This document shows positions 2,122 to 64,000 of a DNA stretch of 64,000 bases, one piece after another; the first letter of the stretch is position 1; each line of letters opens with the position of its first letter. Under the pieces are notes generated by a model, which saw nothing but the letters and a program-made list of their open reading frames with translations, did no database searches and was not told where the DNA came from. The position numbers and the translations under genes were made by a program. Source of the stretch: an uncultured Gammaproteobacteria bacterium (GTDB taxonomy: Bacteria; Patescibacteriota; Patescibacteriia; Patescibacteriales; UBA12465); contig CAYYPI010000002.1 in the NCBI GenBank assembly GCA_964473565.1, positions 3,095-67,094 on the forward strand, read 5' to 3'.

Positions 2122-3252
2122 TTATCTTTTTAAGCGTTTCTCACCAACATATACATACTCCCATGGCTCAGGCTTTGGACCAATATCATCTGCTCCTGGT
2201 GGATAATTTGGAATAAAGCCAAACCTTTTAGCATTAAAGAAGTTATTTTTTGATATCCAATCATAAGCTCTGCTTTTACCAAAATCAGTAAATGAATAAT
2301 TAGAATTTGTATCAACCAAATCAACACTATAGCCACTGTGATGCTTAGAAAATCCTGGTATAGACCTACTTTCTAAAATATTTCTAATAATCTCATCAGC
2401 CTTACCACTTGCTATCTCATCTGTATCTAATTCCCTTCCATACTTTTCTTGCATTCTCTTTTCCATTTCATATCGAAAAATATTTCTCTGCTCCTCAACA
2501 CTTCTATATCCAGAAACAATATCTAAATTATACCCTTCTCTTCTAGCAGCTTCTCTTAGAGAAATGAAATGATTTTTAGCGCTTACTTGTAGATACTCAC
2601 CTTTAATTAATTCAAGCTCTGTACTAGCTACTGCTTGCAATTTATAATCCATATCCCTAGCTATACTAACAATCCGACTATCTGCTTCTTGGTCAAAATA
2701 TATAGCTGGAGAAGATTCAAGCTCTGTTGTGTTTGGCAAGGAAAGACTTTCATATAAATCTACAAAGTCACTAGAGGAAAAAACTTTATAATCATCTTTA
2801 ACTAAATTATCTATAGGGATAGAATTTAAATCTGAATTACTAACCCCTAAGCCAAGCTCTTGCATAATATTAAAAGCGGCTAATGGGCGACTCAAATAAT
2901 GAAAAGAAGCATCATCAGGATTTACATAATAAGCTTTACCACTATCTTCTACTTTTAATAATATAAGTCCTAATAATCTACTGGGAACATCACCTTCACT
3001 TATTTCTTCAAAATTATCATTACTAATTCCTATAGATAATTCTCTCATTATAGAAAAAGCATCAGCTGGGTCTCCTAAATAATATCTTTTTAAATTTTCA
3101 GGATAAATATACCAGGCTTCACCACTTTCTTCCACTTGCAATAATATCTTCCCAGAAAGTGAATGAAAGGCTAAAACAGGGGTATAAGAACCCATAAAAA
3201 GGAGAAAAACTAAACTGATTATTATTAATAATTTTAGATTATTTAATTTCAT
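2122..3252 (-). CDS. secreted D-Ala-D-Ala carboxypeptidase (VanY/peptidase M15B-like) with two N-terminal ~50-aa repeat modules
   Basis: The C-terminal part has SGYRSVEEQ and FSKHHSGYSVDLVD (HxxGxxxD zinc-ligand-type motif). Start placed at MKLNNLKLLIIISLVF (signal peptide, ATG at 3252), because the track's longer start runs through the purL terminator and overlaps purL. Confidence 0.7.
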   Translation of the reverse strand: MKLNNLKLLIIISLVFLLFMGSYTPVLAFHSLSGKILLQVEESGEAWYIYPENLKRYYLGDPADAFSIMRELSIGISNDNFEEISEGDVPSRLLGLILLKVEDSGKAYYVNPDDASFHYLSRPLAAFNIMQELGLGVSNSDLNSIPIDNLVKDDYKVFSSSDFVDLYESLSLPNTTELESSPAIYFDQEADSRIVSIARDMDYKLQAVASTELELIKGEYLQVSAKNHFISLREAARREGYNLDIVSGYRSVEEQRNIFRYEMEKRMQEKYGRELDTDEIASGKADEIIRNILESRSIPGFSKHHSGYSVDLVDTNSNYSFTDFGKSRAYDWISKNNFFNAKRFGFIPNYPPGADDIGPKPEPWEYVYVGEKRLKR

Positions 3253-3355: not shown

Positions 3356-6300
3356 TTATTTCTCTTTACACCAGTCATAGGCATTTTGGACCATTTTTAA
3401 CCAGGGCGAAGCTTTTAAATTTTGCTTCCAATTCTCTGGCATATAAGCCCATTGCCATTTTAAAAAGGTTCTTTCTGGATGAGGCATCATAGCTAAATGT
3501 CTTCCAGATAAATCACAAACCGCTGCAATTCCCTTATAGGAACCATTGGGATTAAACGGGTATTGTTCAGTTATTTTCCCATCATCATCAACATAGCGTA
3601 TTGGTGCTAAATCAAAGCGGTTAATATAACTAAGCACCTCATGATTAGCATGGAACTTCCCTTCACCATGTGCAGACCAGATTCCTAAAACTGAATCAGC
3701 CATCTCTTTTAACATTATAGCCGGGCTACTGCTAATTTTTACAGTGGAAAACCTTGACTCGAAACGCTTAGAATCATTTTCAATAAATCTAATTTTTTTC
3801 TCATCCTTAAAGGCTTTCTTCGGTACCCAACCCAAGAGTGCTGATAATTGGCAACCATTACAAACTCCCAGTGAAAAAGTATCTGGACGATTATAAAAAT
3901 CATCAAACATTTTTTTCACTTTTTTATTAAATAAAATTGTAGCTGCCCAGCCTTTAGCTGAATCAAGTACATCCGCATAACTAAATCCACCTACAAAAGC
4001 CACTCCCCTGAATTCTTGCAGATCAGCTTTACCAGAAATAACGTCGGTCATTGTGACATCATAAACATCAAAACCTACCATTTTGAAATATGAGGACATT
4101 TCTCGGTCACCATTTGATCCTTCTTCCCTAACAATTGCAACTTTCGGCTCATCTACAACTTTATCACCAATATTATACTTTGGTGAATCAATTTCAAAAC
4201 TCAACTTGTAGGGCGTATAATTTCTGATATGAGAGTTTATCCTCTCTTGATTTACACACCTCTCATCACATTGTAAGCGATCAAGTTCAAAGCTGGTTTC
4301 TTCCCATATTGATCTAAAATTAGCCATAGAGTCCGCTAAAAGAAGCTCTTTTTTATCTCTCACATACCTGCTTAACCTTATAATCGGAATTGGCGTTGTT
4401 ATACCAATAATATCAAAAGGTATTTTGTTCGCTTCTAAAAGTTCGAGAATGTTTTCTTCTTTTTTGCAATCAAAGGCAATTATCCAGCCAGCTTCTTCGG
4501 CAAACAATTCCTCAATTACGGTATTTCTATCTGTCCTAACATGACAATCAAAACCAGAATTACCAGCAAAAGCCATTTCCATTAAGGCACTGATCATACC
4601 TCCATCACTAATATCATGACAGGCATTAATCATCCCATCACTCACCAGCTCCTGAACAACTTTAAAACCTCTTAAAAGTAATTGAGGATCATCAATATCA
4701 GGAGTCTCATTACCTAGCTGGTTATAAACTTGAGCTAAAGCAGAACCTCCTAAGCGTCTCTTACCAACAGCCAAATCAATTCTAAGAAGTCTATGTGTGC
4801 CAAGTTTAAAATCAGGTGTAACAACTTTAGTGATGTCAGGCATTGGAGCGTAAGCAGAAATTACCAATTCCAACGGTGATTTAACCAGTTCTGTTCTCCC
4901 ATCAGGATGCTCTACTTTAGTGGCCATGGATAAACTATCCTTACCACCATCAATTGCCATGCCAATTTCAATCATTAAATCTCGCATAGCAGTAGCTGCT
5001 TTATAGAAATTAACACCCTCACCCGGAAGTTTAGGTGCTCCCATCCAGTTGGCTGAGCACTTCACATAATCAAGTCCAGAAATTAGAGCTCCAGCCATGT
5101 TAGTAACTGCCTCAGCTACCGCCATTCTGGCACCAGCTTCAGGATTAACTAACATTTTAATTGGTTGTTCACCTATACTAGTAGCAGCGCCACTGTATAA
5201 CCCTTTATCATTTACAAAATGACTTTGAGCAACTACAGCCACATCAGAAACAGTCACTTGAGGCCAGCCACAACATTGCTGCTGTGCAATAAGTCCGGTA
5301 ACACTCCTATCACCTTTATTGGTTAAAAACCTTTTAGAACCAACTGATGATAATCTCATTACTCTTCTTAACATTGAGTAAATGGTTTCTTTTTTTGGTA
5401 AATGAAGTGTTGAAAAATTAATCCGCTCTTCATTACTAACAAAAGTTTTCTGTGGCATGCCACTTAATAGTGCTTTTAAATCAAGTTCAACCGGCATTTC
5501 ATCTTTTTCGCTATCATAAACACGAAAAATACCATCATCACTTGCCACTCCTAAAACCTCAAGTGGAACCTTTTCACGTTCACATATTTCTTCAAGTTCT
5601 TTTAATGAATCCTTGAAAATAAGGAGGCCATTGCGTTCCTGATACTCAGCAACCCAAATCTCCAATACTGAAAGTGTAGGATCTCCTAAATTAATGCGTC
5701 GGATATCAATGGTACCACCAGTTTTTTCTACTAATTCTTTCAGGACATTAGCAGGTCCACCGGCACCTTGATCATGAATACTGGCAATTGGATTTTTATC
5801 TCCTAACTCAACACAAGCCCTAACTACCCGATTCATTTTTTGCTCCATTTCAGCATCACCTCTTTGTACAGCATCAAAGTCAACTTGCTCTTTATTTTCA
5901 CCTTGCATTAAAGATGAAGCAGCGCCACCACCAAACCCAATACGATAAGCGGGCCCACCAATCTCTACAATCAACATGCCCTTTTTAGCATCAATTTTGT
6001 CCAAGTGTCTGCTGTCAATTTGACCTATGCCACCACTGAAAAGTATTGGTTTAAGGAATTCTCTGCGTTCACCGTTTGGTAAACGAGAAGCACCCGTACG
6101 CACAAATCCGGAAATAACAGGCTCACCAATTTCATTGCCATACCTGGTTGTACCGTTTGACCCAGCAATGAGAATATCTTTAGCACTAGCTAAAGTAGGC
6201 GGATAAACTGATTTTTTCTCCCAGGGCAAGTCATAATTTGTTAAAAACAAATCACCAACGGCATAACCAACTGTACCAGCAAGCATCAATCCTCCGCGAC

Positions 6301-16267: not shown

Positions 16268-17434
16268 TTATAATTCTACTTTAATTATTTGTAATGAATT
16301 GTCCCTTAAGACAGTTAAATCAACCACTTCTCCACTTTTAAACTGAAACAAAGCTTCTGACAAGCTAAGATTTTTATCTAAATTTAAACTATTGATAGCT
16401 AATATTACATCTCCTTTTTTAAGGCCAGCTTTATCAGCATTAGAATCTTTTAGCACAGCTACGCCATTATCATCAGGATACACTAACGCGCCCACTTGTT
16501 TTTCAAAACCCATTTGAGCTGTTTGAGAGAGGCTGATGTAATTAACGCCCAAGCTAGGCAAAGCAAGTTCTTCTTGTTGAGGTTCGAGCAAGGCGTTAGT
16601 TATTAGAAATTCTGAACTAGACAAAGGTGTCCAAGTGCCATCCTCTAGAAAGGCTACTGCCTGGCCCTTAAAGTTAAAGAGCCAAGGTAACTCCATTATT
16701 TCTTGCATTTGTGGATATATTTCTATACTAGAGACAAAAGTATCACTATTTTGAACTAGCTTATTATTTTCTTCTAAACTTAAAAAATTACTAATTATCT
16801 GTTTTTGTGAGTTTAAAACTAAAAGTGATTGTCCAGAAATTAAATCTTGACTAGACATAATACTAATAGGTCTAAGATTTGAGGCTTCTTTTAAATGTAT
16901 TAAAGCTAAAGAGCTATTTTCAATATTAATCTGTTGATCAATTTCATAAATAACTCTATCTGAATTAATAGCTACAAAATTATCAGCTAGACTAACATCT
17001 GAATCTAAACTATTTTTATTAATTATTGCCCAGCCATCAGCACTAATAATCAAGCCTATAGTTTCGGGATTATTTAATTGATAAAAATTGTTTAAATTAG
17101 CTAAGCCATCTTCATTTCCTTCTTGATCAGATTCCAAATCAGTATTTATTGTATCTATTTTTTTTGTAAATATAGTTAACATGCTTTCTCTGATTTGATC
17201 AGCACTCTCCTTTACTTGCACATCTTGATTAACTACCACCTTCTTAGCATCTCGTATAACTAAATTAGATCTATTATAATCATTTAAATTAAGCTCACTA
17301 GTAAAAGCACCTGGATATATATCATTTAAGACATAAGCTCGAACAAATAGCATACCTAAAATACCACCTAAAATAGATATGATGATAACGAATACAATGA
17401 TAAGTAAGTTAATTTTTATAGTTTTATTTTTCAT
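16268..17434 (-). CDS. membrane-anchored PDZ-domain protein (no protease triad seen)
   Basis: N-terminal TM and a C-terminal PDZ-like GLKKGDVILAINS. No GxSGG serine motif. Confidence 0.55.
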   Translation of the reverse strand: MKNKTIKINLLIIVFVIIISILGGILGMLFVRAYVLNDIYPGAFTSELNLNDYNRSNLVIRDAKKVVVNQDVQVKESADQIRESMLTIFTKKIDTINTDLESDQEGNEDGLANLNNFYQLNNPETIGLIISADGWAIINKNSLDSDVSLADNFVAINSDRVIYEIDQQINIENSSLALIHLKEASNLRPISIMSSQDLISGQSLLVLNSQKQIISNFLSLEENNKLVQNSDTFVSSIEIYPQMQEIMELPWLFNFKGQAVAFLEDGTWTPLSSSEFLITNALLEPQQEELALPSLGVNYISLSQTAQMGFEKQVGALVYPDDNGVAVLKDSNADKAGLKKGDVILAINSLNLDKNLSLSEALFQFKSGEVVDLTVLRDNSLQIIKVEL

Positions 17435-23113: not shown

Positions 23114-25507
23114 TTATTCTAATTCATCAAAATTATTATTAGATATTCCCAGTCCTAGATTTCTCATTACTTGGAAAGCATCTGCCGGTCTCCCAAGAAA
23201 ATATCTTTTACCATCGTTAGGATTTACATACCAAGCCTCACCACTGTTTTCAACTTGTAAAAAGATTTTTCCTTTTTGCTCCTTAGAAAAATTATCATCT
23301 AAACTTAATCTACTAGGACCATTAGGATTATAATTACTTTCTAATTCTATTTTATCATTATAGCCATCACCATCTGAATCAGGATTATTAGGGTTAGTAC
23401 CAACAGCGTCTTCAAATAAATCAGGTAGACCATCACCATCTGAGTCAGGGCCAGTTAAATTACTCAAGGCAACAGGAATTTTATTTAAATTATCATTAGT
23501 AATTCCCACTCCTTGTTCACGCATTACAGAAAAAGCATCATTAGGTCTACCTAGATAATACATTTTTTTACTGCTTGGATGGATATAAAAAGCTTCACCA
23601 TTATCCTCAACTTTAAGCATTATTTTACCCTTTAAACTATCATACATTGGATTATTTATAATATTTCTTTCTTGTAGATTATTATCAAGATTTAATTCTG
23701 TGTCCTCAAGAGATAGATAAGATAACATTTCATTAAATTTATTTAAAATATCATTATAAGTATCTGTATTATCACCATAAAAAGCCAAACTTACAACAAT
23801 ATATTTATCACCAGTCTTAATATAATAAAATCTATTTTGCTCTATTATTTCACCAGTACTTATAGATTTATCAACAGTATCTAGCATTATTATATCGTTT
23901 AGATTATTACCTAAATTATAATAAGCATCTTCTTTTAACACCTCCATTCTTAAATCATAGTTACTTGTTATATTATTATTTTCTTTTACCTCTTGCTTTT
24001 TATGAACTAAAAATTCATCATTATTCAAGCTTTTTGTATTATCATCAGTTTTTTCAATATTAATATCAACAAATGCAGATTTATTTTGCTTATGAGTTAT
24101 GAATAAAGGGTGAGACTTGGAATTACGATCAAGTAAAACCCAGTCATTTTTAAGATTAATATTAAATTTTGGATTATCTTGGCTATACTCCTTTTTTTCA
24201 GAATAAGTTCCTGAATCTATTAGAACTATAGAATTTACAATATCATCTATTATACTTTTATCTTTATCATTTTCCCCATAATCATACAGAACTTTTAGTA
24301 GATAGTTTTCAACAGGAATATAATAAAAATTATGTTGTTCACCAGCTATTGAAAGGATAACTTTTTTAGCTTGATATCCATTTATTAATACATCCTCATT
24401 TTTTACAATTGTTGCCATAGAATTTAAAAATAGCAAGTCTCTTTTAATGCTTGACTCCACAATATCAGTGCCAACTTCATAAGGAAATTTAACATTAGTT
24501 ATTGAGATAATACCGCCTTGATCATCGCTTTTCTTATCAATTGACAACGTCACCTCATCTTCATGTGTAAAATCCCAATCTTCTGGTTTAGTTATTTTGT
24601 AGACCGGCTCATTATTAATAAATTCATTATTATTTTTTATATTAATAATTTTTTTAGCCAAATCTTCAAGTCTAGTTGTTAGGGAGCTGGACTGTGGATT
24701 TTTAGCAATATTTGAATTAATCCAACTATTTAGCGAATTAGCACTAATTATATAACCTAAACTACCAAGAGTGTCAGAATGAGAACTACTAGTTATACCA
24801 ATAACTCCTGCCTTAGAATCTATAGCTGCTCCGCCTGAGCTACCATAAGACATAACTGCATCAGTTTTTAGCCAGCTTTTATTATATTTATTCTCTTTAC
24901 CGCTTAATACTCCTTTAGTTATTGTTATTGTATTACCCCCAATTGAAGGGTAGCCTAAAACTGTGACTTCATCATTTACTGAGATAGTTTCTGAAGTATT
25001 TAGATTTAAATATGAAAAAGATTCTTTATTACTATAATTATCTATGTTTTGTATTTTTAACAAAGCAACATCTAAATCTTTATCACTAGCAATTAATTCT
25101 CCACTATATTTACATTCTGGCTCATTATTAATATCTTCTGTTAAGCAAATCATATAAGAAGCTTCTTTCTCTGTACTATCAAAATCATCTTCCAGTGTGA
25201 CTACATGGTGGTTAGTTAATACAGTACCTTTTGAATCTATTATTACACCCGAACCAGTTGAAAAAAGACTCAACTCATTATCAACATTTAAGCTATAAGA
25301 TTTTATTTTTACTATTGCTTTATGAGCATCAGCTTTAGGTAGATCACTTACATCTGTAATAATTTCATTATTTGAATCAGAAACAATGTTAAAAGAAGTT
25401 GATGTAAATATGTCTTGAGCGGCCTGTATGTATTTATTTGGCACAAAAAAAGATATTAAAATAAGACACGATAACATTAAAAAATAAAATGGTTTTAGTT
25501 TTTTCAT
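23114..25507 (-). CDS. secreted trypsin-like serine protease (S1 family) with Ca-binding-type DxDxDG repeats and two ~50-aa repeat modules at the C-terminus
   Basis: Signal peptide. Triad context TNHHVV, DVALLKI and YGSSGGA. DSDGDGLPD and DSDGDGYND repeats. Modules GKIMLKVEDNGEAFYIHP... and GKIFLQVENSGEAWYVNP... Confidence 0.75.
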   Translation of the reverse strand: MKKLKPFYFLMLSCLILISFFVPNKYIQAAQDIFTSTSFNIVSDSNNEIITDVSDLPKADAHKAIVKIKSYSLNVDNELSLFSTGSGVIIDSKGTVLTNHHVVTLEDDFDSTEKEASYMICLTEDINNEPECKYSGELIASDKDLDVALLKIQNIDNYSNKESFSYLNLNTSETISVNDEVTVLGYPSIGGNTITITKGVLSGKENKYNKSWLKTDAVMSYGSSGGAAIDSKAGVIGITSSSHSDTLGSLGYIISANSLNSWINSNIAKNPQSSSLTTRLEDLAKKIINIKNNNEFINNEPVYKITKPEDWDFTHEDEVTLSIDKKSDDQGGIISITNVKFPYEVGTDIVESSIKRDLLFLNSMATIVKNEDVLINGYQAKKVILSIAGEQHNFYYIPVENYLLKVLYDYGENDKDKSIIDDIVNSIVLIDSGTYSEKKEYSQDNPKFNINLKNDWVLLDRNSKSHPLFITHKQNKSAFVDINIEKTDDNTKSLNNDEFLVHKKQEVKENNNITSNYDLRMEVLKEDAYYNLGNNLNDIIMLDTVDKSISTGEIIEQNRFYYIKTGDKYIVVSLAFYGDNTDTYNDILNKFNEMLSYLSLEDTELNLDNNLQERNIINNPMYDSLKGKIMLKVEDNGEAFYIHPSSKKMYYLGRPNDAFSVMREQGVGITNDNLNKIPVALSNLTGPDSDGDGLPDLFEDAVGTNPNNPDSDGDGYNDKIELESNYNPNGPSRLSLDDNFSKEQKGKIFLQVENSGEAWYVNPNDGKRYFLGRPADAFQVMRNLGLGISNNNFDELE

Positions 25508-42700: not shown

Positions 42701-42714
42701 TAATATAATTTGTG

Positions 42715-42788
42715 AGCCACCCGTCGGATTCGAACCGACGACCTACTGTTTACAAAACAGTTGCTCTAACCAGCTGAGCTAGGGTGGC
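42715..42788 (-). tRNA. tRNA-Thr (anticodon TGT)
   Basis: GCCACCC acceptor, anticodon arm ACTGT-TTTGTAA-ACAGT, T arm GTCGG-TTCGAAT-CCGAC. Confidence 0.9.
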
Positions 42789-42835
42789 AATATCTAAATA
42801 TATTTAAATACTTATATAAATATATTATTTGTATG

Positions 42836-42908
42836 TGCGCCCACTAGGATTCGAACCTAGGACCTTCTGCTTAAAAGGCAGCTGCTCTACCGACTGAGCT
42901 ATAGGCGC
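42836..42908 (-). tRNA. tRNA-Lys (anticodon TTT)
   Basis: GCGCCTA acceptor, anticodon loop CTTTTAA, T arm CTAGG-TTCGAAT-CCTAG. Confidence 0.9.
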
Positions 42909-43081
42909 TAAAAAATAAAAGTGCTATCTGAGCACAGTTATTAATAATAATAACAAAACATTTTTTATTTGTAAATACCTGCTTAAAAAGTGCAAAACCT
43001 GTGTAATAAATGGGGTTGATTTTTAATGCTCACTTAGTGTAAGATAAAGAAATACAAGTAGATATAAATAACTAGAAAAGC

Positions 43082-56926: not shown

Positions 56927-57238
56927 TTAATCGTTTTGAGAGCCAGCAGAACCTTTTTTTAATCTTTTTTTATACTTATCCAGAACTTTATTTAAAGCAT
57001 CTTTTAAATCAATATCATAGGTATTAGCAATTGTTATCAAAGAAAATAAGACATCACCTAATTCAACTTTTAACTCTTGCCTATACTCAGATTTTTTCTT
57101 GCCATAATCACTCATCTTTAACACCTCTTTTGCTAACTCACCAAGCTCTGACATGGCATCCAGAACTCTGTGTTCAACTGATGTTTCCATATCATTTTCT
57201 TTGCAAAAGTCTTTTATTTTTTCTTGTATTTTTTTCAT
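56927..57238 (-). CDS. MazG-type nucleotide pyrophosphohydrolase
   Basis: About 100 aa, all-alpha. ELGELAKEV...ELGDVLFSL EExxE/D pattern. Confidence 0.7.
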   Translation of the reverse strand: MKKIQEKIKDFCKENDMETSVEHRVLDAMSELGELAKEVLKMSDYGKKKSEYRQELKVELGDVLFSLITIANTYDIDLKDALNKVLDKYKKRLKKGSAGSQND

Positions 57239-57246
57239 AGATAATT

Positions 57247-57753
57247 TTATCTAATTATCTTAACTTTAGCATAAAGGTGTGCATCAAAAAATTCATTTCC
57301 ATTTTTTATAACTTTTTTCATTGTTCCCTCTTTTTTATAGCCACACTTTATAGCCACCTTTTCACTAGCAATATTTCCAGGATTCATTAAAATTTCAATT
57401 CTATTTAATCCTAATTTCTCAAATCCAATCTTTTCAAGAATCTTTACAGCTTTAGTGGTAATTCCCTTTCCCCAATATTTCTCATCTAAGAAATAACCTA
57501 TTTCACCAATAAAAGTTCTATGTTGATTTATTTTAATTCCACACCCACCAACTACCTTGCCATTAAACAAAATAGCATAATTATATGATATATTATTTTT
57601 TCTCTTTTTAGTATTTTGTCTTAAAAAATCTTTTTCAGCTTCTACATCTTTTGGACAAATCTTAAGATACTTAAAATTAGGATTATTTAATATTTCATAA
57701 AACCTTTTTGCATCAGAGACTCTTTGATTTCTTAACTCAATTTTTTTTGACAT
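57247..57753 (-). CDS. GNAT acetyltransferase (RimJ/RimL-like)
   Basis: WGKGITTKAV motif and family layout. Confidence 0.8.
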   Translation of the reverse strand: MSKKIELRNQRVSDAKRFYEILNNPNFKYLKICPKDVEAEKDFLRQNTKKRKNNISYNYAILFNGKVVGGCGIKINQHRTFIGEIGYFLDEKYWGKGITTKAVKILEKIGFEKLGLNRIEILMNPGNIASEKVAIKCGYKKEGTMKKVIKNGNEFFDAHLYAKVKIIR

Positions 57754-57781
57754 ATAATTTATTTAAAAAATTATCTAATTT

Positions 57782-58051
57782 TTATTTATAAACTTTTTTT
57801 GCGTATATTAAATATAATACAAGTATAATATTAAACAAATAATTAATATAAAGCGGAAAATGTGTAATTTTTAATAATATATCGTCTATAACGATATAGG
57901 TAAAAGTGAGTATTTCCCCTAAAAGCCAAAAAATTAAAAACAGCCAGGATAAATCTCCTGCTTTCTTAGTTCTCCATGTTTGAATTACTTGTGGAACAGC
58001 GCATATTGCAAATAAAAATGCTCCGATCCAACCAATGTAATGATGTAACAT
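57782..58051 (-). CDS. PQ-loop (SemiSWEET-like) 3-TM membrane protein
   Basis: 89 aa with three helices and the AVPQVIQTWRTKKAGDLS PQ motif after TM1. Confidence 0.6.
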   Translation of the reverse strand: MLHHYIGWIGAFLFAICAVPQVIQTWRTKKAGDLSWLFLIFWLLGEILTFTYIVIDDILLKITHFPLYINYLFNIILVLYLIYAKKVYK

Positions 58052-58076
58052 ATTCTATAAATTATTAGATTTACTT

Positions 58077-58478
58077 TTACAATAAATCTAAAAGCTTCTT
58101 AATACTATTATGTGAAACCACGTATTTATCACTGAAAAATTCATCTTTTGTTACCCATTTATATTCAATTATATTTTCACCAGTAGGATTTTTTGTTAAA
58201 TCAATTTCATCATCAGCACTACATAAAAATGTAGTACAAATTACTTGACCCTTATCTTGTCTAAAAAACCAAAAAAAACCAATGGGTCTTAATATTTTAA
58301 CAGAAAGATTAACTTCTTCCTTAACTTCACGTACTAATGTGTCATAAGGAGATTCGCCATAATCAACCTTGCCACCAGGTAAATCCCAAGTATCCATATC
58401 TGATATTTTCTGTTTAATTACAAGAAATCTTTCTCCACGTTGGATTATTGCTTTAACTGCTGGGTATACACGATTCAT
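58077..58478 (-). CDS. NUDIX hydrolase
   Basis: Nudix box GGKVDYGESPYDTLVREVKEEVNL. Confidence 0.85.
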   Translation of the reverse strand: MNRVYPAVKAIIQRGERFLVIKQKISDMDTWDLPGGKVDYGESPYDTLVREVKEEVNLSVKILRPIGFFWFFRQDKGQVICTTFLCSADDEIDLTKNPTGENIIEYKWVTKDEFFSDKYVVSHNSIKKLLDLL

Positions 58479-58508
58479 ATTTTCTATTAATTAAATTAAA
58501 TATTTTCT

Positions 58509-59102
58509 TTATTCCCTTTTCCAATCACCATCATTAAACCTATTATTCGCTTTAAGATGCCAATCATGTGGATTTGAGTCCTGAATTTCTTTCCACATCT
58601 TTTTAGCTGTCTCTGTGAATAATGTTTCATATACTCTATCTCTTATAACTTGAAAATCTTCTTTAACCTTCACCCCGTTAACATATTGCTCTTGAAGCTC
58701 CATATCAACATCTAAATTATCAGCGTCTTTAACAATTTTGGCTTCTATAGACTGCCTATCTTCATATTCATTGAATATTTTCAGAAACTCATCTTCAACA
58801 CTAGTATCCTTCAATATATCATCAATTGCACCTTTATCATCTCTTTTTGTATACATTCTAGATAAATAATTGACATCTGAATTTCTTGATTCAACAATAT
58901 CATGCACTAGGGCCATTTTAATTACTTTATCAATATCAGCTTTTTCTTCCTTAGCAATTATAATAGCAGTCCAAATAACTCTAAAGATGTGCTCAGATAA
59001 ATTAGCAAAATCTTTATTTAGAAATTGCCTCCACATTCTTGGGATAAATCTCATGGTTCCAAGCTCATAAAGAAACTCTAAATTACGATTATGATTTTCC
59101 AT
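58509..59102 (-). CDS. HD-domain phosphohydrolase (YfbR-like 5'-deoxynucleotidase)
   Basis: SEHIFRV...ALVHDIVESRNSD H...HD...D pattern. Confidence 0.75.
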   Translation of the reverse strand: MENHNRNLEFLYELGTMRFIPRMWRQFLNKDFANLSEHIFRVIWTAIIIAKEEKADIDKVIKMALVHDIVESRNSDVNYLSRMYTKRDDKGAIDDILKDTSVEDEFLKIFNEYEDRQSIEAKIVKDADNLDVDMELQEQYVNGVKVKEDFQVIRDRVYETLFTETAKKMWKEIQDSNPHDWHLKANNRFNDGDWKRE

Positions 59103-59120
59103 ATTGTTTATTTTAAAAAT

Positions 59121-59155
59121 AAAAAAAGCACTAAATTATAATTTTAGTGCTTTTA
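59121..59155 (-). terminator. rho-independent terminator
   Basis: AAGCACTAAA / TTTAGTGCTT stem with a T-run on the minus strand. Confidence 0.65.
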
Positions 59156-59168
59156 AAAAACATAAATA

Positions 59169-59435
59169 TTAAACTTTTAGCTTTTCTAAAAGGTTGTTCC
59201 ATTTTCCTTCAATATCACTCATTAATTCATCAGATTTACTTTTTAAGTCTTCTACTTTGTCACCCCCTGCACTCTGTAATTCTTCCATCTTTGCCTTCAT
59301 TTCATCAAGCTTAGATTCTAATTCACCCATTTCGTCTTGATTTGAAATTTCCAAATCAGCTTTTTTCTCGGCAAGTTCTGCTTTAACTTTATCGTACTTA
59401 GCTTTTAATTTGTCTAAATAAGGTTGCATATCCAT
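59169..59435 (-). CDS. small acidic coiled-coil protein
   Basis: 88-aa ORF with a heptad-like K/E/L pattern. Confidence 0.4.
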   Translation of the reverse strand: MDMQPYLDKLKAKYDKVKAELAEKKADLEISNQDEMGELESKLDEMKAKMEELQSAGGDKVEDLKSKSDELMSDIEGKWNNLLEKLKV

Positions 59436-59629: not shown

Positions 59630-59650
59630 GTATATCCCAATGGATTATAG
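59630..59650. repeat. decayed remnant (element D) of the GC-rich cassette-boundary element
   Basis: GTATATCCCaatGGATTATAG compared with element B GTATATCCCttGTTATACG. Lies just 3' of the 59676 ORF stop. Confidence 0.25.
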
Positions 59651-59675
59651 TAAAACAAAGAAATTTGAAAAATAG

Positions 59676-60164
59676 TCACTTTGAATTTTTAATATATTCT
59701 TGAACAGCTTTTATATCAATCCTTTGATGATCACCTGACAACAATTTTTTATAGTTTATGAGATCACTTGGATTAATCACAGTCAACTTAATACCTTCAA
59801 AATATACTTTTTTTAATTTTGAAAAATTGGCAGGACTGTGTATCCATCTTTTAGAAAGATCATCAAATATTTTTTGATTATAAGCACCTCCAATATCTAT
59901 TTCTTGTCCAAGGTAGTTGAGTGTCATTAACTTCAAGTTCCATCTTTCATCTTTATAATTTTCAGGGCCTAAAATTATATAATCTTTTACTTTATCAAAA
60001 ATTTTTTCAAAATCATTTTCAGGAATATCTATGTCTATATCGTTCACCTCTCTCTTTGATCCATAAAGATGAGCTGCAAAACCACCAGAAATACGATATT
60101 GGATGTTATCTTTACTAAGGATATTAATAATCCAGCGAAGAGCTTGTAACTGTTTATTTTTCAT
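59676..60164 (-). CDS. nucleotidyltransferase-fold protein (Lnu/ANT-like minimal NTase)
   Basis: SGGFAAHLYGSKREVNDIDIDIP (G[GS]...DxD). Start placed at MKNKQL (60164) because the track's first 13 codons (to 60203) are built from the duplicated HD-gene tail. Confidence 0.55.
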   Translation of the reverse strand: MKNKQLQALRWIINILSKDNIQYRISGGFAAHLYGSKREVNDIDIDIPENDFEKIFDKVKDYIILGPENYKDERWNLKLMTLNYLGQEIDIGGAYNQKIFDDLSKRWIHSPANFSKLKKVYFEGIKLTVINPSDLINYKKLLSGDHQRIDIKAVQEYIKNSK

Positions 60165-60184
60165 TTTAGTATTTAAGTTGAGCC

Positions 60185-60325
60185 TTACTTTTTTCCATTC
60201 CATTCATCAAAGAATTCTTCAAGAAATAATTCCATAAATTTATGCCTTTTATCAGCCATCTTCTTTGCTGTTTCTGTATTCATATTTTCTTTTAATTTCA
60301 AAAGCTTACTATAAAGAAGATGATT
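60185..60325 (-). pseudogene. 3'-terminal fragment of an HD-hydrolase gene (duplicate of the 61931-62070 region)
   Basis: 60195-60313 matches 61941-62059 with 6 mismatches in 119 nt (hand alignment). It encodes ...YSKLLKLKENMNTETAKKMADKRHKFMELFLEEFFDEWNGKK* with no start or N-terminal domain. Confidence 0.7.
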
Positions 60326-60378
60326 TTCTGGAGTGATAACGGAAGAGAAACAAACACAATGACGTCTTGAGTTATAAA

Positions 60379-60693
60379 TTAGTCACTCCTTGTTTCCTCT
60401 AAAATAATTTTATTTTTAAATCCACCTCTTTTCTCTCTCTTTTTCAGCATAATCTGTTCTAATTCCTCAAATTTAATTCCTCTAAAAGCTAACATTGCAT
60501 GTATTACTTCCAATACATCTGCTAATTCTTCATCTATATTAGAATCCTCCAATACCTCATTAACTTCTTCTTGTAATTTAGCTTTCAATTTTACCCAATA
60601 TTCTGAATCATCTGCTATATGAGTCAGAGGAATAGATCCTTTATCTTTGATAATTTGAGGAATTTTATCTCTTACTAATTTATCGTATTTCAT
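60379..60693 (-). CDS. MazG-like all-alpha NTP pyrophosphohydrolase (COG4997-like)
   Basis: MKYDKLVRDKIP... and EELADVLEV typical of the family. Confidence 0.6.
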   Translation of the reverse strand: MKYDKLVRDKIPQIIKDKGSIPLTHIADDSEYWVKLKAKLQEEVNEVLEDSNIDEELADVLEVIHAMLAFRGIKFEELEQIMLKKREKRGGFKNKIILEETRSD

Positions 60694-60744
60694 ATTAAGG
60701 GTTTAAAAATGAAATTTATAATTATTATGACTAACTTATAATTT

Positions 60745-60898
60745 CGCACAACGTTTGCGGATATGAGAACTTGCAACCGTAGGAAGCAATTTGGGTGAGC
60801 CCCGAGCCGAGGGGCGAACCGGATACACCTTGTTATACGTCCCGCCGACTAAAAGGAGAAGAGTGTAGCGTGGTCGGAGCGAAGCGGAGAAGTTTAAA
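60745..60898. repeat. GC-rich structured boundary element A (attC-like)
   Basis: CGCACAAC-GTTTGC...TTTGGGTGA-[GCCCC gagccga GGGGC]-GAACC-ggatacac-ctt-GTTATACG, then a ~50-nt GC-rich hairpin region. Colinear with elements B and C. Confidence 0.6.
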
Positions 60899-60916
60899 TT
60901 ATTTTATGAAAATTCA

Positions 60917-61204
60917 TTATGTTAAAAACCTAATCAAATCAATTATTAAGCGAATTATTCCCATACCAACAATAATTTGCCACCTTCTTGTTATCAAAGA
61001 CAATAATATGATTAAAATCAAAATTGCTGGATATGTAAAATAATATAATTCAAGTCCAAAAGAAAAATCTAAAAATATAGGTGATGATTTGATAATAATA
61101 TTTATCATTTCAGCAAAAATAACTGCAATTACTCCAATAATTATATCAATCTTTTTTATTTTCTTTTCGGTGAGTTTATTATCTATTTGTTTAAAAATTT
61201 TCAT
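60917..61204 (-). CDS. small membrane protein
   Basis: 95 aa with 2-3 hydrophobic helices. Confidence 0.4.
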   Translation of the reverse strand: MKIFKQIDNKLTEKKIKKIDIIIGVIAVIFAEMINIIIKSSPIFLDFSFGLELYYFTYPAILILIILLSLITRRWQIIVGMGIIRLIIDLIRFLT

Positions 61205-61318
61205 AAAATAATCTAAAATACATATAATTAAAGTGCTATCTGAAGTTTTTGAAAACTCCTTATTAAAATTAATTATTTTTCAAAATTTTGTCTGAGAAAA
61301 TAAAAAAGAAAAAATCGT

Positions 61319-61597
61319 TTACTTTTTACTTCTTCTAATCTTATTAATTCCACCATATATTGATCCGAATGAAGCTAGAATTATTAACAAGCCAACAATT
61401 TTTTGAACAGTCATTAGTGCTAAGCCAAGAAAAATCATTAAAAAGCCTTGAACTAGAAATATGTAACCAACTTTTTTAGCGCCATACTTTATATCTGGTG
61501 GAAATTTTCCCCCAGTATAAACACCTGGTTGGTATTGTTTTTTTTGCCATTCATTTAAATCTTCTGAGTATTTTTGAGATTCACTTTTTTTATTCAT
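61319..61597 (-). CDS. small membrane protein
   Basis: 92 aa with two hydrophobic helices and a basic C-terminus. Confidence 0.4.
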   Translation of the reverse strand: MNKKSESQKYSEDLNEWQKKQYQPGVYTGGKFPPDIKYGAKKVGYIFLVQGFLMIFLGLALMTVQKIVGLLIILASFGSIYGGINKIRRSKK

Positions 61598-61812
61598 AGG
61601 TTTTTTCTTTTTTATTGTCGTAGCTAGATATCATATGTTGTGTGTAGCTGGTCTTCGCATTTATTTGAGCTTATTAGAACATTAATGCTTGATACGAACA
61701 TTGCATTTGAAGAAATAAGAAGACTAATTTCATATAACATTTGAGTGTATCTGAAGTTTCAGATACTTTTTTGATTTCTCATTATTATTTTATCATAAAA
61801 AAATACAAAAAA

Positions 61813-61927
61813 GAAGCTGAAATTTGGGTAAGCCCGAGTCGAGGGCTGAACCGTATATCCCTTGTTATACGAGGGTGAGGAGCGATAGCAACGAAAGCGC
61901 AGCGTCCCTCTAGCGTTTAAGTTTGGG
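61813..61927. repeat. GC-rich structured boundary element B (half-element)
   Basis: AATTTGGGTA-[AGCCC gagtcga GGGCT]-GAACC-gtatatcc-ctt-GTTATACG (61864-61871), a 44-nt GC-rich segment, then TTTAAGTTTGGG (61916-61927). It lacks the half that carries the second core in A and C. Confidence 0.6.
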
Positions 61928-61930
61928 CTG

Positions 61931-62593
61931 TTACTTCTTGCCATTCCATTCATCAAAGAATTCTTGAAGAAATAATTCCATAAATTTATGTCTTTCATTA
62001 GCCATTTTCTTAGCTGTTTCTGTATTCATATTTTCTTTTAATTTCAAAAGCTTACTATAGAAATGATGTACTGTTGAAGAATCTTTTTCAGATTCATCAA
62101 AACTATCTCTATCAAAAGGTTTTTCTGGAATCCACATGGGAACTTGATTTGCTCCACTAAATGAAAAAGTTCTTCCAATTCCAATTGCACCAATTGCATC
62201 TAAGTTATCAGCATCTTGTAAAACTAATGTTTCAATATCATTTACTGTTTTTCCATTTTCAGAAAAATTGTATTCTTCATGATATTCGACACAATGAAGA
62301 ACTTTTTCTTTTTGTTCTTCAGTTAAATTAGTTTTATCAAGAATTTCTTTAACTTTTGGTAATGAATCTTTTGGAGAGCAAAATTTTCCAGTTTCCTTTT
62401 GAATGATTCTATGAACATCATGTAAAAATGCAGAAACAGCAATAATTAACTTATCTCCACCTTCTTTTTCTTGAAGTGTTAAAGCAGTATTCATAGTACG
62501 CTTTAAATGATAAATATCATGTCCGCTACTTTCTTCATGAAAAAGAACTTTTACTTCTTTTTCAAGCTGATGAATTATTTCTTCCATAAACAT
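61931..62593 (-). CDS. HD-domain phosphohydrolase (YpgQ-like)
   Basis: SGHDIYHLKRT...AFLHDVHR...DADNLDAIGAIG. Start moved to MFMEE (62593, or 62587) because the track's TTG start at 62767 reads through element C. Confidence 0.75.
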   Translation of the reverse strand: MFMEEIIHQLEKEVKVLFHEESSGHDIYHLKRTMNTALTLQEKEGGDKLIIAVSAFLHDVHRIIQKETGKFCSPKDSLPKVKEILDKTNLTEEQKEKVLHCVEYHEEYNFSENGKTVNDIETLVLQDADNLDAIGAIGIGRTFSFSGANQVPMWIPEKPFDRDSFDESEKDSSTVHHFYSKLLKLKENMNTETAKKMANERHKFMELFLQEFFDEWNGKK

Positions 62594-62630
62594 AGATAGA
62601 TGAATGGTTATTAATAAATTTTCGGTTATA

Positions 62631-62745
62631 CCCAAACTTAAATGTCGTATAACGTTCGCGTATATCTGATGTTGCGACCGAAGGGAGCCATATGGGTGAG
62701 CATTTGCCGTTAAGCAAGCGCGAACCAGATATACGCTGTTAGCTG
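62631..62745. repeat. GC-rich structured boundary element C (attC-like)
   Basis: CCCAAACTTAAA-tgt-CGTATAAC-GTTCGC...ATATGGGTGA-[GCATTTGC cgttaa GCAAGCGC]-GAACC-agatatac-gct-GTTAGCTG. Also the internal 11-bp inverted repeat GCGTATATCTG / CAGATATACGC. Confidence 0.6.
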
Positions 62746-62854
62746 ATGTATTCCTTTTCTTTTCCAACGATAGTCAGTTGTTTTAAAAATTTTCAAATTT
62801 CTTTTTCCGTACCCAAAACACCACTTTCTGTTTGAGGGAGGAGCAAGAGGGGAA

Positions 62855-62875
62855 CAAAAGGGGTGAATTGCCCCG
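62855..62875 (-). terminator. weak terminator-like hairpin after the ATPase ORF
   Basis: GGGG-caattca-CCCC followed by TTTTG on the minus strand. The stem is only 4 bp. Confidence 0.3.
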
Positions 62876-62889
62876 ACCGAAAACATTCC

Positions 62890-64000
62890 CTATTTGTTCA
62901 ATAAATATTTCCTTTCTCGTTGCCTAAAGGCTTCCTCTCCGCCTTCAAGAATATCTCTGATATTTTTGTTTATTTCGGGGTTTTCAATGCTTCCTGCTAA
63001 ATAGTCCAATTCTTGATCTAGTCTTGCTACGATTATTTGTTCAGCATCCGCATTAACTACCAGATTGGCGTTGTGGGTTGACATTATGATTTGCCTTGAT
63101 TGTTTGGCCTTCCGGATTAGTGGAACAAGCTCATTCATTATGAAGTTGTTATCAAGGTTGTCTTCGGGCTGATCTATAATGAACACTTGTTTTGCAGTTG
63201 CGGTAGCTAAATAGACTTTTAGTAACAGCGTTCCTCTTTGTCCGATTGATAAAATTTCCGTTGCCTTTCCATTTAATTTCGCAATTGCTTTTACTCCCAA
63301 GAAGTCAGCCCATTCAGTGAATATATAATATGTAATTCCGCTGATTCCATCACGGCTAAAGCATTTTTGTTCACTTAAATCAGTTTTTTGTATCCATACT
63401 GATAGATTTTCAAAAGTTATTTCTCGGGGTGTTCCATCTTCATTTGTACCGGCTATCATTTTTTTCAGATCAGTTTCATTTGCCACTTTCCGATTATCTA
63501 GGAAATCATCCAACACACGTTTAGCAAATTTTTTGAAATTAAATTCAATTTTTCCCTCAACTTCAATACCTTTGATAATTTTATCGAATAGTTCCTTTTC
63601 TTCGACTGTTGAATCATCGCGTGAATTTTGAAAATCTTGAAATGCTTGCGTTATAGCATTTTTTAGGGCAAGCAATGAATTACTAATTTGTTCCAAAATT
63701 TTTCTTCTTTCATCGTGTAAGTCCGTCAATTGTTTTTTTGACTGCTTGTAACTTTCAATATCTTTTCCAATGTTGCTTATTTGGCGTTGTAAATTTTCAC
63801 TGGCTTGTAATAGAGTGTTAACGTCTTCCTTGATACCCTGTTCAATAAGTTTCTTTTTTAAGGCGATAATTTCATCTCTCAATTGTTTCATATCTTCCTC
63901 AATTTTTGCCTGTAATTCGCTTAGTATTTTTGTCTGCTTGCTAACATCTAGCCCTTCAATTAGATCATTGTCAGGGTAGTGTTCTTTTAAAATGACGTTG
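62890..64000 (-). CDS. SMC/Rad50-like ABC-type ATPase, C-terminal part (5' end lies beyond the window)
   Basis: The frame stays open upstream of the track's ATG to position 64000. Coiled-coil stretch, then signature-like LSIGQRG, Walker B FIIDQPEDNLD and H-loop STHNANL. Confidence 0.75.
   Translation of the reverse strand, partial: NVILKEHYPDNDLIEGLDVSKQTKILSELQAKIEEDMKQLRDEIIALKKKLIEQGIKEDVNTLLQASENLQRQISNIGKDIESYKQSKKQLTDLHDERRKILEQISNSLLALKNAITQAFQDFQNSRDDSTVEEKELFDKIIKGIEVEGKIEFNFKKFAKRVLDDFLDNRKVANETDLKKMIAGTNEDGTPREITFENLSVWIQKTDLSEQKCFSRDGISGITYYIFTEWADFLGVKAIAKLNGKATEILSIGQRGTLLLKVYLATATAKQVFIIDQPEDNLDNNFIMNELVPLIRKAKQSRQIIMSTHNANLVVNADAEQIIVARLDQELDYLAGSIENPEINKNIRDILEGGEEAFRQRERKYLLNK

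Follow-up and report, generated by a model that had tools for sequence, protein, structure and literature searches.

A probable integron-like gene-cassette array with folded, attC-like sites in a Parcubacteria (CPR/Patescibacteria) genome

Integration of the CTX phage at dif (IMEX) is carried out by a Xer-type recombinase without the IntI domain, which joins the phage attP, a folded single-stranded hairpin, to a chromosomal duplex site; the pdif modules of Acinetobacter plasmids are bounded by short duplex sites of alternating orientation. The integrons described from Archaea (Ghaly et al., 2022; PMC9668308), most of them reported without an IntI, as CALINs, have attCs of the classical layout (R''-AAYTC-L''...; Data S9) and IntIs with an extra domain. 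The 'Cand' subgroup (Smyshlyaev et al., 2021; PMC8138268), in the part of that study drawn on here, comprises simple Xer-like recombinases of candidate phyla that are related to Xer. In the literature we found no description of a CPR gene-capture system such as the one presented below, which comes from a 64-kb stretch of a Parcubacteria (CPR/Patescibacteria) genome (hereafter the window). We are fairly confident that the region is best read as the distal half of a chromosomal integron-like gene-cassette array. Our results support the view that its GC-rich elements are folded recombination sites between mobile gene cassettes in an integron-like arrangement, and they point to a widespread gene-capture system in which both the recombinase and the sites are unlike those of classical integrons.

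The first-pass annotation had proposed that three such elements (A, B and C) are homologous, and they prove to be so far beyond chance: A and C share a 76-nt repeat at 72% identity (repeat family D6), A and B a 52-nt repeat at 77% (D11), and a covariance model (R1), built from 14 family members including A and C with B left out, assigns 76 bits to C, 72 to A and 54 to B (E-values of 1e-10 to 1e-15), giving one weak match only (E=0.17) in the rest of the 64-kb window. The motif CGTATAAC has four copies in the window against 0.42 expected, three of them inside the elements. The three elements belong to one family of structured sites of about 80-200 nt with the layout NNNNTAAC-A-L''(12)-GGTTC-hairpin-CACCCAAATT-hairpin-AACTTC-L'(12)-GAT/GAAC-GTTRNNN. 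As a single strand this folds into an R stem (NNNNTAAC/GTTRNNNN), an asymmetric loop of 1 nt against 3-4 nt after the R stem, and an L stem of 12 continuous base pairs with no bulged base seen, enclosing two hairpins set around the conserved GGTTC, CACCCAAATT and AACTTC.

All of these features lie on the minus strand of the window, which is that of the genes. Site C (62646-62745; 76.3 bits, E=1.8e-15) is an intact attC-like site with the cores that had been read from it, R'' CAGCTAAC (62738-62745) and R' GTTATACG (62646-62653), and the L stem GCGTATATCTG/CAGATATACGC; both R and L stems form in folds of the complementary (plus) strand, and the L stem alone in those of the gene strand. It is adjoined by the right copy of an inverted repeat of ~75 nt (62746-62823; sequence comparison), which, taken with CAGCTAAC, is mirrored at the beginning of its own cassette (GTTAGCTGAAATATTCC..., outside the window); the same leader and inverted copy surround other genes in L004, L023 and L031. 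This repeat stands between R'' and a GC-rich module read directly 3' of the ATPase stop codon (62824-62889), which is a putative 5' module by its post-stop position, shared with the modules that we aligned, and is itself outside that alignment. Site B (61731-61871; 54.2 bits, E=1.7e-10, with non-pairs flagged) had been taken as truncated; it is instead complete, with R'' CGTATAAC, R' GTTATATG at 61734-61741 and an AT-rich insertion in the second hairpin, and it has lost the L''/L' pairing, with no long-range stem in folds. Site A (60745-60839; 71.6 bits) has the cores claimed for it (R'' CGTATAAC, R' GTTGTGCG) and intact inner motifs, and its L'' (AGGTGTATCCG) and L' (TCTCATATCCG) are not complementary, which marks it as a hybrid or decayed site; its fold is without an R/L stem (z=-0.8). 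The sites thus exist where elements had been marked, but their extents differ: the GC-rich stretches at 60840-60898 (beside A) and 61872-61915 (beside B; core GGGACGCTGCGCTTTCG...CTCACCCT) are no part of them and constitute a separate 5' GC-rich hairpin module with a conserved ACGCTGCGCTYTC core in an alignment of 13 modules. Element D (59630-59650) resembles R''+L'' of B (TATAA..GGGATATAC); the earlier view of it as a decayed remnant is favoured by GGGATATAC, found in the window in B and D only, but the covariance model does not detect D, leaving that view plausible only. We regard A and B as decayed hybrids, C as intact and D as a plausible remnant, and the array appears to decay distally, the broken A and B being the farthest from the recombinase.

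The fold is borne out by covariation. Over 27 sites 89% of the cells pair, against 67% in shuffled and about 40% in slid alignments, the covariation score is 0.554 versus 0.164, and 15 of the 24 predicted pairs in the covariation alignment show at least one compensatory change. The variable hairpin likewise keeps its pairing through compensatory change (alignment columns 26-29 with 63-66), as had been anticipated from the window. The long-range helix GTTYGC/GCGAAC fared less well, being weak across the family (73% paired versus 66% in shuffles); the main covarying helix is the 12-bp L''/L' stem, and the single G-T pair from which bottom-strand folding had been argued is therefore silent on the folding strand. 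Counts of G-T versus A-C pairs in the stems are mixed, and the strand complementary to the genes folds better by 0.5-3.8 kcal/mol in four of four intact sites. The AAC and GTT cores are invariant or nearly so across the 27 sites; the outer four core positions vary (CGTATAAC, CGCCTAAC, CAGCTAAC...) and do not strictly follow RYYY/RRRY. Beyond the R box, complementarity reaches outward as cassette-specific outer inverted repeats.

Each cassette starts with TTRNNNG after the attI G, contains one gene or operon and ends in a site of ~80-200 nt. In 13 of the 27 sites the first core matches, in reverse complement and without a mismatch, the core at the head of the cassette to which the site belongs (6% under random pairing of cores), with a mean of 1.04 mismatches versus 2.52 to the site's own R' and 2.70 in random pairing. 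The cassette rule, first noted for the HD cassette, which indeed begins with TTATACG and ends at the CGTATAAC of B, hence holds statistically over the family, and about 51-58 nt lie between R' and the ATG of the ORF that comes next. The exchange point lies at GTT, site F and L014_653 being near-identical up to ATAC-GTT and different beyond.

At the right edge, 62890-64000 encodes the C-terminal part of a 924-aa P-loop ATPase (gene calls; Pfam AAA_21/SMC_N), a Ppl-like defence protein (PADLOC Ppl, 2e-37; also REase_II and MTase_II in the cassette); this gene closes a 5.7-kb cassette (HTH, M.HpaII-like, R.HpaII-like, Vsr, ATPase) whose start lies outside the window. The next is a single-gene cassette for a 218-aa HD-domain hydrolase (61931-62587; gene call, PF01966), with a 12-nt inverted repeat at its ends (TTTAAGTTTGGG, 62631-62642; CCCAAACTTAAA, 61916-61927), followed by a cassette of two ORFs for small predicted membrane proteins (60917-61597; ORF list and gene calls) of 92 aa (61319-61597) and 95 aa (60917-61204), neither with a Pfam match. 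A 104-aa MazG-like ORF (60379-60693; weak PF03819/PF01503 matches), whose exact protein is present on the NCBI contig, opens the last recognisable cassette. Farther on, a stretch 92% identical to the 3' end of the HD gene (60185-60322; repeat family D2) is debris of a lost HD cassette and is overlapped by the listed start of a nucleotidyltransferase ORF (59676-60203; ORF list, 175 aa as listed, weak PF10706 match). Six co-oriented genes without sites (56927-59435; MazG, GNAT, PQ-loop, NUDIX, HD_3 and one of 88 aa), none of which occurs in the syntenic interval of the related locus L006, probably represent fossil cassettes at the array's far end.

The array had been seen to run to the edge of the window, and extension of the contig places the platform, a recombinase with an attI-like sequence, just outside: a tyrosine recombinase of 270 aa, divergent from the array, lies ~7.8 kb past the right edge (L003 8-820, opposite strand), followed by a conserved attI-like junction (...ATAAAAAGTA|GTT) and seven cassettes. 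Seven loci are alike at this junction up to ...ATAAAAAsnA-GTT and cassette-specific right after, and L137 provides an eighth with a different first cassette. The recombinase sequence has the usual catalytic-region motifs (GLRVSE, KGNKDR, HSLRHS, LLGH and TYTEV) and matches VchIntIA (2a3v) in two parts (query 11-179 to 11-183 and 201-270 to 248-317), with 21 residues where IntI has 64; the IntI-specific additional domain (around patch III), without which classical attC recombination does not proceed, is absent. It scores below the cutoffs of all NCBIfam Xer and IntI models (TIGR02249: 203 bits, in two stretches, under a cutoff of 265), and its closest solved structures are XerA (1.9e-40 and 4e-38). 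It may be called Xer/XerA-like, with a probable, putative placement in the 'Cand' subgroup as far as the consulted part of its description goes (PMC8138268).

The same layout recurs in six further CPR lineages, with recombinases 62-88% identical, conserved flanks and unrelated cargo, and in all seven CPR lineages examined the recombinase is adjacent and divergent, with the conserved attI abutting its start. The flanks in L006, recombinase-GatB and Tmk-Adk-DHFR-ThyA, are those of the array in the window, with 3-4 genes only between them. Related genomes thus bear out the expectation of different cassettes joined exactly at GTT, and cassette content is fully replaced between relatives. The GNAT gene from the distal end of the array in the window is 82% identical in nucleotides to the first cassette of L137, which adjoins attI and is followed by an intact site; its fixed distal position here versus the attI-proximal one there would be evidence of mobility. 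Copies of the sites are confined to arrays at gene boundaries, the scattered copies envisaged at the outset not being found: of 32 covariance-model matches, 30 fall within arrays and on the gene strand, all sites are in direct orientation, and a search of 202 kb on both strands gives no match outside arrays with E below 0.1. Sites of this class are also present in DPANN, in other Archaea and in many bacterial phyla; some non-CPR loci have the recombinase inside the array or in the same orientation as the sites.

An attI with G|TT insertion, co-oriented cassettes with inverse cores and the cassette rule are features of an integron sensu stricto, a class ruled out here by the want of an IntI-specific domain and of a classical attC fold; the attC reading first put forward accordingly survives as an integron-like array and fails in the strict sense, the sites having no unpaired central spacer or extrahelical bases. 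One could still suppose a classical integron or CALIN with ordinary attCs, served in trans by a canonical IntI elsewhere, the 270-aa protein being only a chromosome-dimer resolvase like XerA/XerC. The cores and the cassette rule are indeed those of attC sites, and the recombinase is so unusually conserved (at least 60% identity across CPR phyla; annotated XerD in many sources) that, also in view of its putative 'Cand' placement, it could be a housekeeping Xer merely beside the array. We nonetheless consider this unlikely, given the attI-abutting recombinase of all seven CPR lineages and the absence of any IntI with the extra domain from about 135 loci, 14 of which carry the short type. Further, the site architecture is unlike that of nine classical archaeal attCs recombined by IntI1, and JAFNKG010000085.1, a contig on which R1 finds two sites, is missing from the IntegronFinder output published for GCA_017883965.1. 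A Xer-like enzyme with XerA as its closest structures, and insertion beside one fixed chromosomal site, would also suit double-stranded dif-like elements, that is, IMEX or pdif-like cassettes put at a chromosomal dif by the housekeeping Xer. This is quite improbable, as segments 60-150 nt apart are kept complementary by compensatory change, which is needless for a duplex site, the uniformly direct orientation differs from the alternating one of pdif, and inspection of the junctions by eye showed no dif-like palindrome of the 11-6-11 type.

That the elements play no part in recombination and are structured 3'-UTR RNAs (terminators, stabilisers or insulators), the alternative raised in the first-pass annotation, accords with their constant position downstream of ORFs on the sense strand, with a G-T pair, innermost in the L stem, that 23 of the 27 sites keep on that strand, with TTCG or TACG loops in some hairpins, and with the frequent complementarity between a cassette's opening 60 nt and its final 130 nt, which would pair mRNA ends. 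Such a role leaves the cassette rule, the attI junction and the turnover of cargo between relatives unexplained; the two strands are about equal in folding, T-tails are lacking from the sites, and with Rfam 15 no match falls on the elements even when E is allowed to reach 10, only four tRNAs in the window reaching the gathering score. We hold it to be very unlikely as the whole explanation, though the sites may have a secondary RNA role. REP- or MITE-like selfish repeats gathering by chance between genes would likewise be imperfect palindromes with terminal inverted cores, and an AT-rich insertion variant of one site is common to distant genomes. We give this hardly any credence: neither the roughly 59 kb of core genome in the window nor the core flanks of any locus contain a site, and the sites are strictly of one orientation, tied to the recombinase and, as judged by eye, without target-site duplications.

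Returning to the integron-like array, we propose, by analogy to integrons and to the Xer-mediated integration of the folded CTX-phage strand, that the folded site would be recognised by the recombinase, with strand exchange at or beside the G|TT of R'. Recombination between two sites would then excise a circular cassette, and that between a site and attI would insert it beside the recombinase gene. The enzyme acting on the sites would be the 270-aa recombinase and the substrate single-stranded DNA of one strand, a chemistry that the IMEX precedent makes feasible; site C is probably still active, and A and B probably no longer so. Cassette order is identical in the three contigs with recombinase P0002, and neither excised circles nor empty sites nor rearrangements within a population were observed.

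Among known systems, the sedentary chromosomal integrons (the Vibrio cholerae superintegron with its VCR attC) are alike in having a divergent tyrosine recombinase and an attI where insertion takes place at G|TT. In both, the cassettes form a long co-oriented array, are mostly small, obey the cassette rule and are each closed by an imperfect palindrome whose cores are AAC...GTT; the cargo is of toxin-antitoxin, NUDIX, GNAT and restriction-modification types, and the array appears to decay distally. These integrons differ in that the recombinase here, at 270 aa, is without the ~40-aa IntI-specific domain, that a 1 x 3-4-nt loop, not a 5 x 6 unpaired spacer, stands between the R and L stems, that no extrahelical bases are seen and the conserved motifs lie in the inner part, and that there is an extra 5' GC-rich hairpin and complementarity outward beyond the R box. 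The CTX-phage IMEX involves phage genomes, XerC with XerD and the 28-bp dif, and has neither tandem single-gene cassettes nor an array of repeated sites. The pdif modules are similar in that each is a discrete set of genes with sites for a Xer-type recombinase at its borders, whereas the elements here are folded, ~100 nt long, of a single orientation and beside a fixed attI. The 'Cand' recombinases probably belong to the same family as the one here, the part of their description consulted mentioning no cassette array or site (PMC8138268). As for the archaeal integrons (PMC9668308), the present site class is not listed for the genome common to both analyses, but the two are alike in the semi-conserved attI with its canonical insertion point, in the cassette arrays of uncultivated small-genome lineages and in the distribution across domains.

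At the right end of the window, homologous G+C-rich elements separate co-oriented small genes. Against a background of 25-39% G+C in 1-kb bins, three G+C-rich islands lie between the ORFs of the 59.6-64 kb region, all of which are encoded on the minus strand. Read on this gene strand, the islands hold sites A (60745-60839), B (61731-61871), and C (62646-62745), with a plausible remnant, D, at 59630-59650. Repeat finding recovers a common stretch of 76 nt between A and C (72% identity) and of 52 nt between A and B (77%), bearing out the homologous islands between co-oriented ORFs described in the first-pass annotation. The octamer CGTATAAC, with an expectation of 0.42 copies in the 64 kb, is present in four, all but one of them inside the islands. 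No Rfam family matches the islands at either gathering or permissive thresholds, the RNA genes of the window comprise four tRNAs and no others, and scans for promoters and terminators find neither enriched. Four copies of a ~62-nt repeat (61-76% identity), arranged as two pairs 20 kb apart (2910-3154 and 23212-23630), are probably repeated protein-coding segments with no relation to the array.

The MazG-like protein of the window is also encoded on the NCBI contig JBKHAF010000005.1 (GCA_046543045.1), which is identical to the window across 13.6 kb of checked overlap and carries a recombinase whose source is named as 'Parcubacteria group bacterium'. By coordinate mapping, this contig starts at about window position 42927, directly past two tRNA genes (42714-42908), implying that the assembly behind the window, though of the same organism, is a longer or different one. 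Extension past position 64000 uncovers a 270-aa tyrosine recombinase about 7.8 kb beyond the right window edge, on the strand opposite to the array, together with a conserved attI, the junction beside the recombinase; no other tyrosine recombinase is found within the window, where the first-pass annotation had likewise seen none. The recombinase is followed by seven co-oriented cassettes, whose genes were assigned with Pfam and PADLOC. Counted from the recombinase, they encode a GDSL lipase (1), a 249-aa protein (2), an Ltp-type lipoprotein (3), an HTH regulator, cytosine methylase, HpaII-type endonuclease, Vsr, and a 924-aa ATPase, the C-terminal part of which is window 62890-64000 (4), an HD hydrolase (5), two small membrane proteins (6), and a MazG-like protein and a nucleotidyltransferase with an HD-gene fragment (7). 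The cargo includes a complete restriction-modification system and a Ppl-like defense ATPase.

We compared this locus with those of six further lineages, with recombinases 88, 80, 79, 74, 63, and 62% identical to the present one. In all six, small co-oriented genes lie upstream of the recombinase on the other strand, and the 150-400-nt gaps between them carry the same kind of element as the window. The cargo is unrelated among genomes (e.g., serpin, glycosidase, NUDIX, GNAT, HicAB, type I methylase, and P-type ATPase), and one relative (L006) has the same two flanks as the window array (recombinase-GatB and Tmk-Adk-DHFR-ThyA-Dcd), with only three or four genes in the interval; hence, the locus is hypervariable between conserved core genes. 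In seven loci, conservation of the stretch that joins the recombinase gene to the first cassette runs up to ...ATAAAAA(G/C)NA-GTT, past which the sequence diverges at once into GTTAAGTG, GTTAGCTG, GTTATACG, GTTGTGCG, GTTAGGCG, or GTTGTACG. The comparison of related genomes advised in the first-pass annotation thus yields one platform with unrelated cassettes that part company right after GTT. The attI region (821-898 of L003, the same contig past the right window edge; equivalents in the CPR loci L004-L015) spans ~75 nt from the start codon to GTT, is strongly conserved across CPR lineages, and holds several TATAAT-like boxes along with a pair of direct repeats resembling AGTTNAG; recombinase-binding sites and divergent promoters probably overlap here. 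A metagenome scan for further cassettes at attI returned two contigs, of which one (L137) is new and informative: its attI is followed by GTTATACG, a GNAT gene, and an intact site. This gene shows 82% DNA identity to window 57247-57753. Given that the GNAT gene of the window has this counterpart in the attI-proximal cassette of L137, the six site-less genes at 56.9-59.4 kb are most plausibly fossil cassettes.

On the gene strand, the elements share an ordered layout: a G+C-rich hairpin module with the core ACGCTGCGCTYTC, NNNNTAAC (the outer core R''), a single A, the 12-nt arm L'', GGTTC, a variable hairpin, CACCCAAATT, a second hairpin, AACTTC, the 12-nt arm L' complementary to L'', one of GAT/GAC/GAAC/AAAC, and GTTRNNNN (the outer core R'). 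The consensus fold of a 14-site alignment has at least one compensatory change in 15 of its 24 predicted pairs. A covariance model derived from this alignment found 27 sites in six loci, all within arrays and on the gene strand. In core regions and the other ~59 kb of the window, it matched nothing except 5365-5452 on the plus strand (E=0.17), so that the copies prove to be bound to arrays rather than scattered. Both this match and an isolated CGTATAAC octamer outside the array, at 17253-17260, are probably due to chance. Across the 27 sites, in an alignment fitted to the model, 89% of the cells pair, as against 67% in shuffles and ~40% with slid partners, and the covariation score is 0.554 vs 0.164; an independent MAFFT alignment yielded the same helices. 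The covariation analysis suggested in the first-pass annotation accordingly backs a fold built on the L stem. The long-range helix GTTYGC/GCGAAC that the same annotation had put forward does not stand as the main fold, being barely above control and incompatible with the L stem. Our initial search with a fixed-spacing motif pattern gave no matches because hairpin length varies, and the raw counts of a naive AAC...GTT stem scan were no better than in shuffles, the true sites being distinct only by their common layout. When four intact sites were folded as single-stranded DNA, three of them formed the R and L stems on each strand, and the R stem of site C formed on the complementary strand only. 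The gene-complementary strand is slightly more stable in all four, and the counts of G-T vs A-C in the stems are mixed as to the folding strand.

Several features point to the movement of these units as cassettes. When the R'' of each site is compared with the reverse complement of the preceding R', which begins the same cassette, 13 of the 27 cases agree perfectly and the mean is 1.04 mismatches, as against 2.52 for the site's own R' and 2.70 (6% perfect) for random pairs; as several distinct core variants follow this cassette rule, it is not a by-product of a single common core. Up to ...ATAC-GTT, site F of the extended contig is near-identical to one in the relative L014, and beyond it the two are unrelated, with recombinases only 62% identical. 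Moreover, in 19 of the 27 cassettes (control 5%), at least 10 nt within 60 nt downstream of R' are exactly complementary to a segment in the 130 nt that precede the cassette's own R''. In a circular cassette, this end complementarity would prolong the R stem beyond its outer end, and the 5' module would branch off to the side. The integron-like cassette array recognized in the first-pass annotation is therefore backed by the attI junction, the cassette rule, the GTT boundary, and a GNAT gene found in two contexts. By analogy to integrons and to Xer, which acts on the folded CTX-phage strand, we infer the link between the enzyme and the sites, a single-stranded substrate, and the strand used.

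Site C is intact. In sites A and B, cores and inner motifs are preserved, but L''/L' are unpaired and the R and L stems do not form; these sites look like hybrids from recombination within the conserved center. Site B also bears an AT-rich insertion, and D shares with it only TATAA..GGGATATAC. As the two sites farthest from the recombinase are broken, the array appears to decay with distance from it. Between the MazG-like and nucleotidyltransferase ORFs, 138 nt (60185-60322) repeat the 3' end of the HD gene (61931-62068) at 92% identity, without a site; the listed start of the nucleotidyltransferase overlaps this copy, which is apparently what remains of a deleted HD cassette.

Some sites have AT-rich insertions of 50-90 nt in the second hairpin (L003 3900-4069, L014 9182-9353, and window 61731-61871); one such variant is near-identical between genomes with recombinases only 62% identical, which suggests that the site was transferred recently. 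The G+C-rich module with the core ACGCTGCGCTYTC, situated between the stop codon and R'', is seen at 60840-60898, 61872-61915, and 62824-62889, the last being outside the module alignment and grouped by its post-stop position, and in the 5' flanks of most sites elsewhere; its loop is replaced by AT-rich sequence in two loci. An accessory binding site and an RNA element are both possibilities for it. A further ~75-130-nt 'leader' (GTTAGCTGAAATATTCC...TTGTTTTAAAAAATTTTCAAATTTC...) occurs at cassette starts in many CPR genomes and one Woesearchaeota contig (L003 4062-4190, window 62746-62823, and the loci L004, L005, L023, L030, L031, L066, L093, L095, L116, and L127), often with an inverted copy at the cassette end and with unrelated neighboring genes; a module carrying a promoter and an independent element are both conceivable.

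The recombinase combines Phage_int_SAM_4 and Phage_integrase domains, and catalytic-region motifs of the usual kind are readable in its sequence. Its best NCBIfam models are the integron integrase TIGR02249, with 203 bits in two stretches (cutoff 265), and archaeal XerA, with 198 bits (cutoff 220). The Pyrococcus and Thermoplasma XerA structures align with it end to end, whereas the alignment with VchIntIA breaks at the IntI-specific domain, with 21 residues against 64 in VchIntIA. Homologs of ~270 aa number in the thousands across CPR phyla, at 60-88% identity. The enzyme probably belongs to the 'Cand' subgroup that a published classification recognizes among Xer-related recombinases of candidate phyla (PMC8138268). 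It is conceivable, if rather unlikely, that CPR have in this 270-aa enzyme their one housekeeping Xer, with attI doubling as or deriving from its dif. If so, CPR, and many DPANN and other uncultivated lineages with this site class, would capture genes via the chromosome-dimer-resolution machinery, the platform would operate without the IntI domain, which is thought indispensable, and it would represent a living intermediate for the origin of integrons and a large class of cassette arrays invisible to current integron-finding tools.

A scan with the pattern TAACA-N10-GRTTC-N(8-38)-CACCCAWAT-N(5-35)-AACWTC over one genome per species returned at least 120 loci. The matches listed include CPR (Kerfeld-, Uhr-, Magasanik-, Gracili-, Berkel-, Roizman-, Shapiro-, and Saccharibacteria), archaea (Woese-, Pace-, Micr-, and Aenigmatarchaeota, ANME-1, Methanosarcinales, Methanocellales, and Thermoplasmata), and other bacteria (Spirochaetia, Aminicenantes, Atribacteria, Dehalococcoidia, Halothermothrix, Ignavibacteriae, Chlorobium, KSB1, and Omnitrophota). 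As several lie on contigs of 0.3-2.4 Mb, mis-binning cannot account for all of them. By the covariance model, many of the matched loci hold co-oriented multi-site arrays; one Spirochaetia chromosome, for example, has eight sites within 8 kb. Among the matches listed, at least 14 of the 8-kb loci contain a recombinase homolog, every full-length one is without the IntI insertion, and none gives the split two-stretch alignment expected of the IntI extra domain. The recombinase is divergent from the array in the CPR and DPANN loci among these matches. Outside them, in L061 (Micrarchaeota), L073 (Atribacteria), L082 (Aminicenantes), and L088 (Dehalococcoidia), the layout is unlike the divergent CPR platform, the homolog being co-oriented with the sites or within the array; in L061 and L082, its ORF has 349-360 codons, with ~70 residues preceding the matched region.

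We found no published description of the present system in the integron literature searched on CPR, Patescibacteria, or DPANN. In the study of archaeal integrons, the attCs are classical, the IntIs have the extra domain, and most arrays lack an integrase (PMC9668308). For GCA_017883965.1, its IntegronFinder table records two attCs, on contig 033 only (PMC9668308), and our model, built from 14 sites including A and C, finds two sites on contig 085; this single case indirectly suggests that the standard attC model misses the present site class. CPR genomes are very small and thought to have few routes of gene gain. If the enzyme acts on these sites, a major gene-exchange system has been overlooked, which would provide a concrete model for the emergence of integrons from Xer-type systems. 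It would also help account for the excess of integron-type recombinases in a 2026 study, where 97% of the contigs with such enzymes are without a recognized attC and novel attC sites are one proposed explanation (PMC13323075).

Among the closest known counterparts are the classical integrons. These are defined by an IntI with the extra domain and by the classical attC, and surveys depend on models of both. Nine archaeal attCs recombined by IntI1 have a 7-nt R'', ~5 unpaired nt, and an L'' with a bulged base (Data S9, PMC9668308). We contrasted the present sites with these by inspection, a MAFFT alignment of the 3' halves of the nine being poor. The R and L stems of the present sites are parted only by a 1 × 3-4-nt asymmetric loop, and their 12-bp L stem runs uninterrupted, no bulge having been seen in it. 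Further, unlike the classical attC, they have conserved sequence in the inner part, an extra 5' hairpin module, and cassette ends complementary beyond R (19/27). Strict membership among integrons, as judged from sequence, fails on two defining features, namely the IntI domain and the classical attC fold. The system has every genetic hallmark of an integron, yet with an Xer-like recombinase devoid of the IntI domain and a distinct, more elaborate site.
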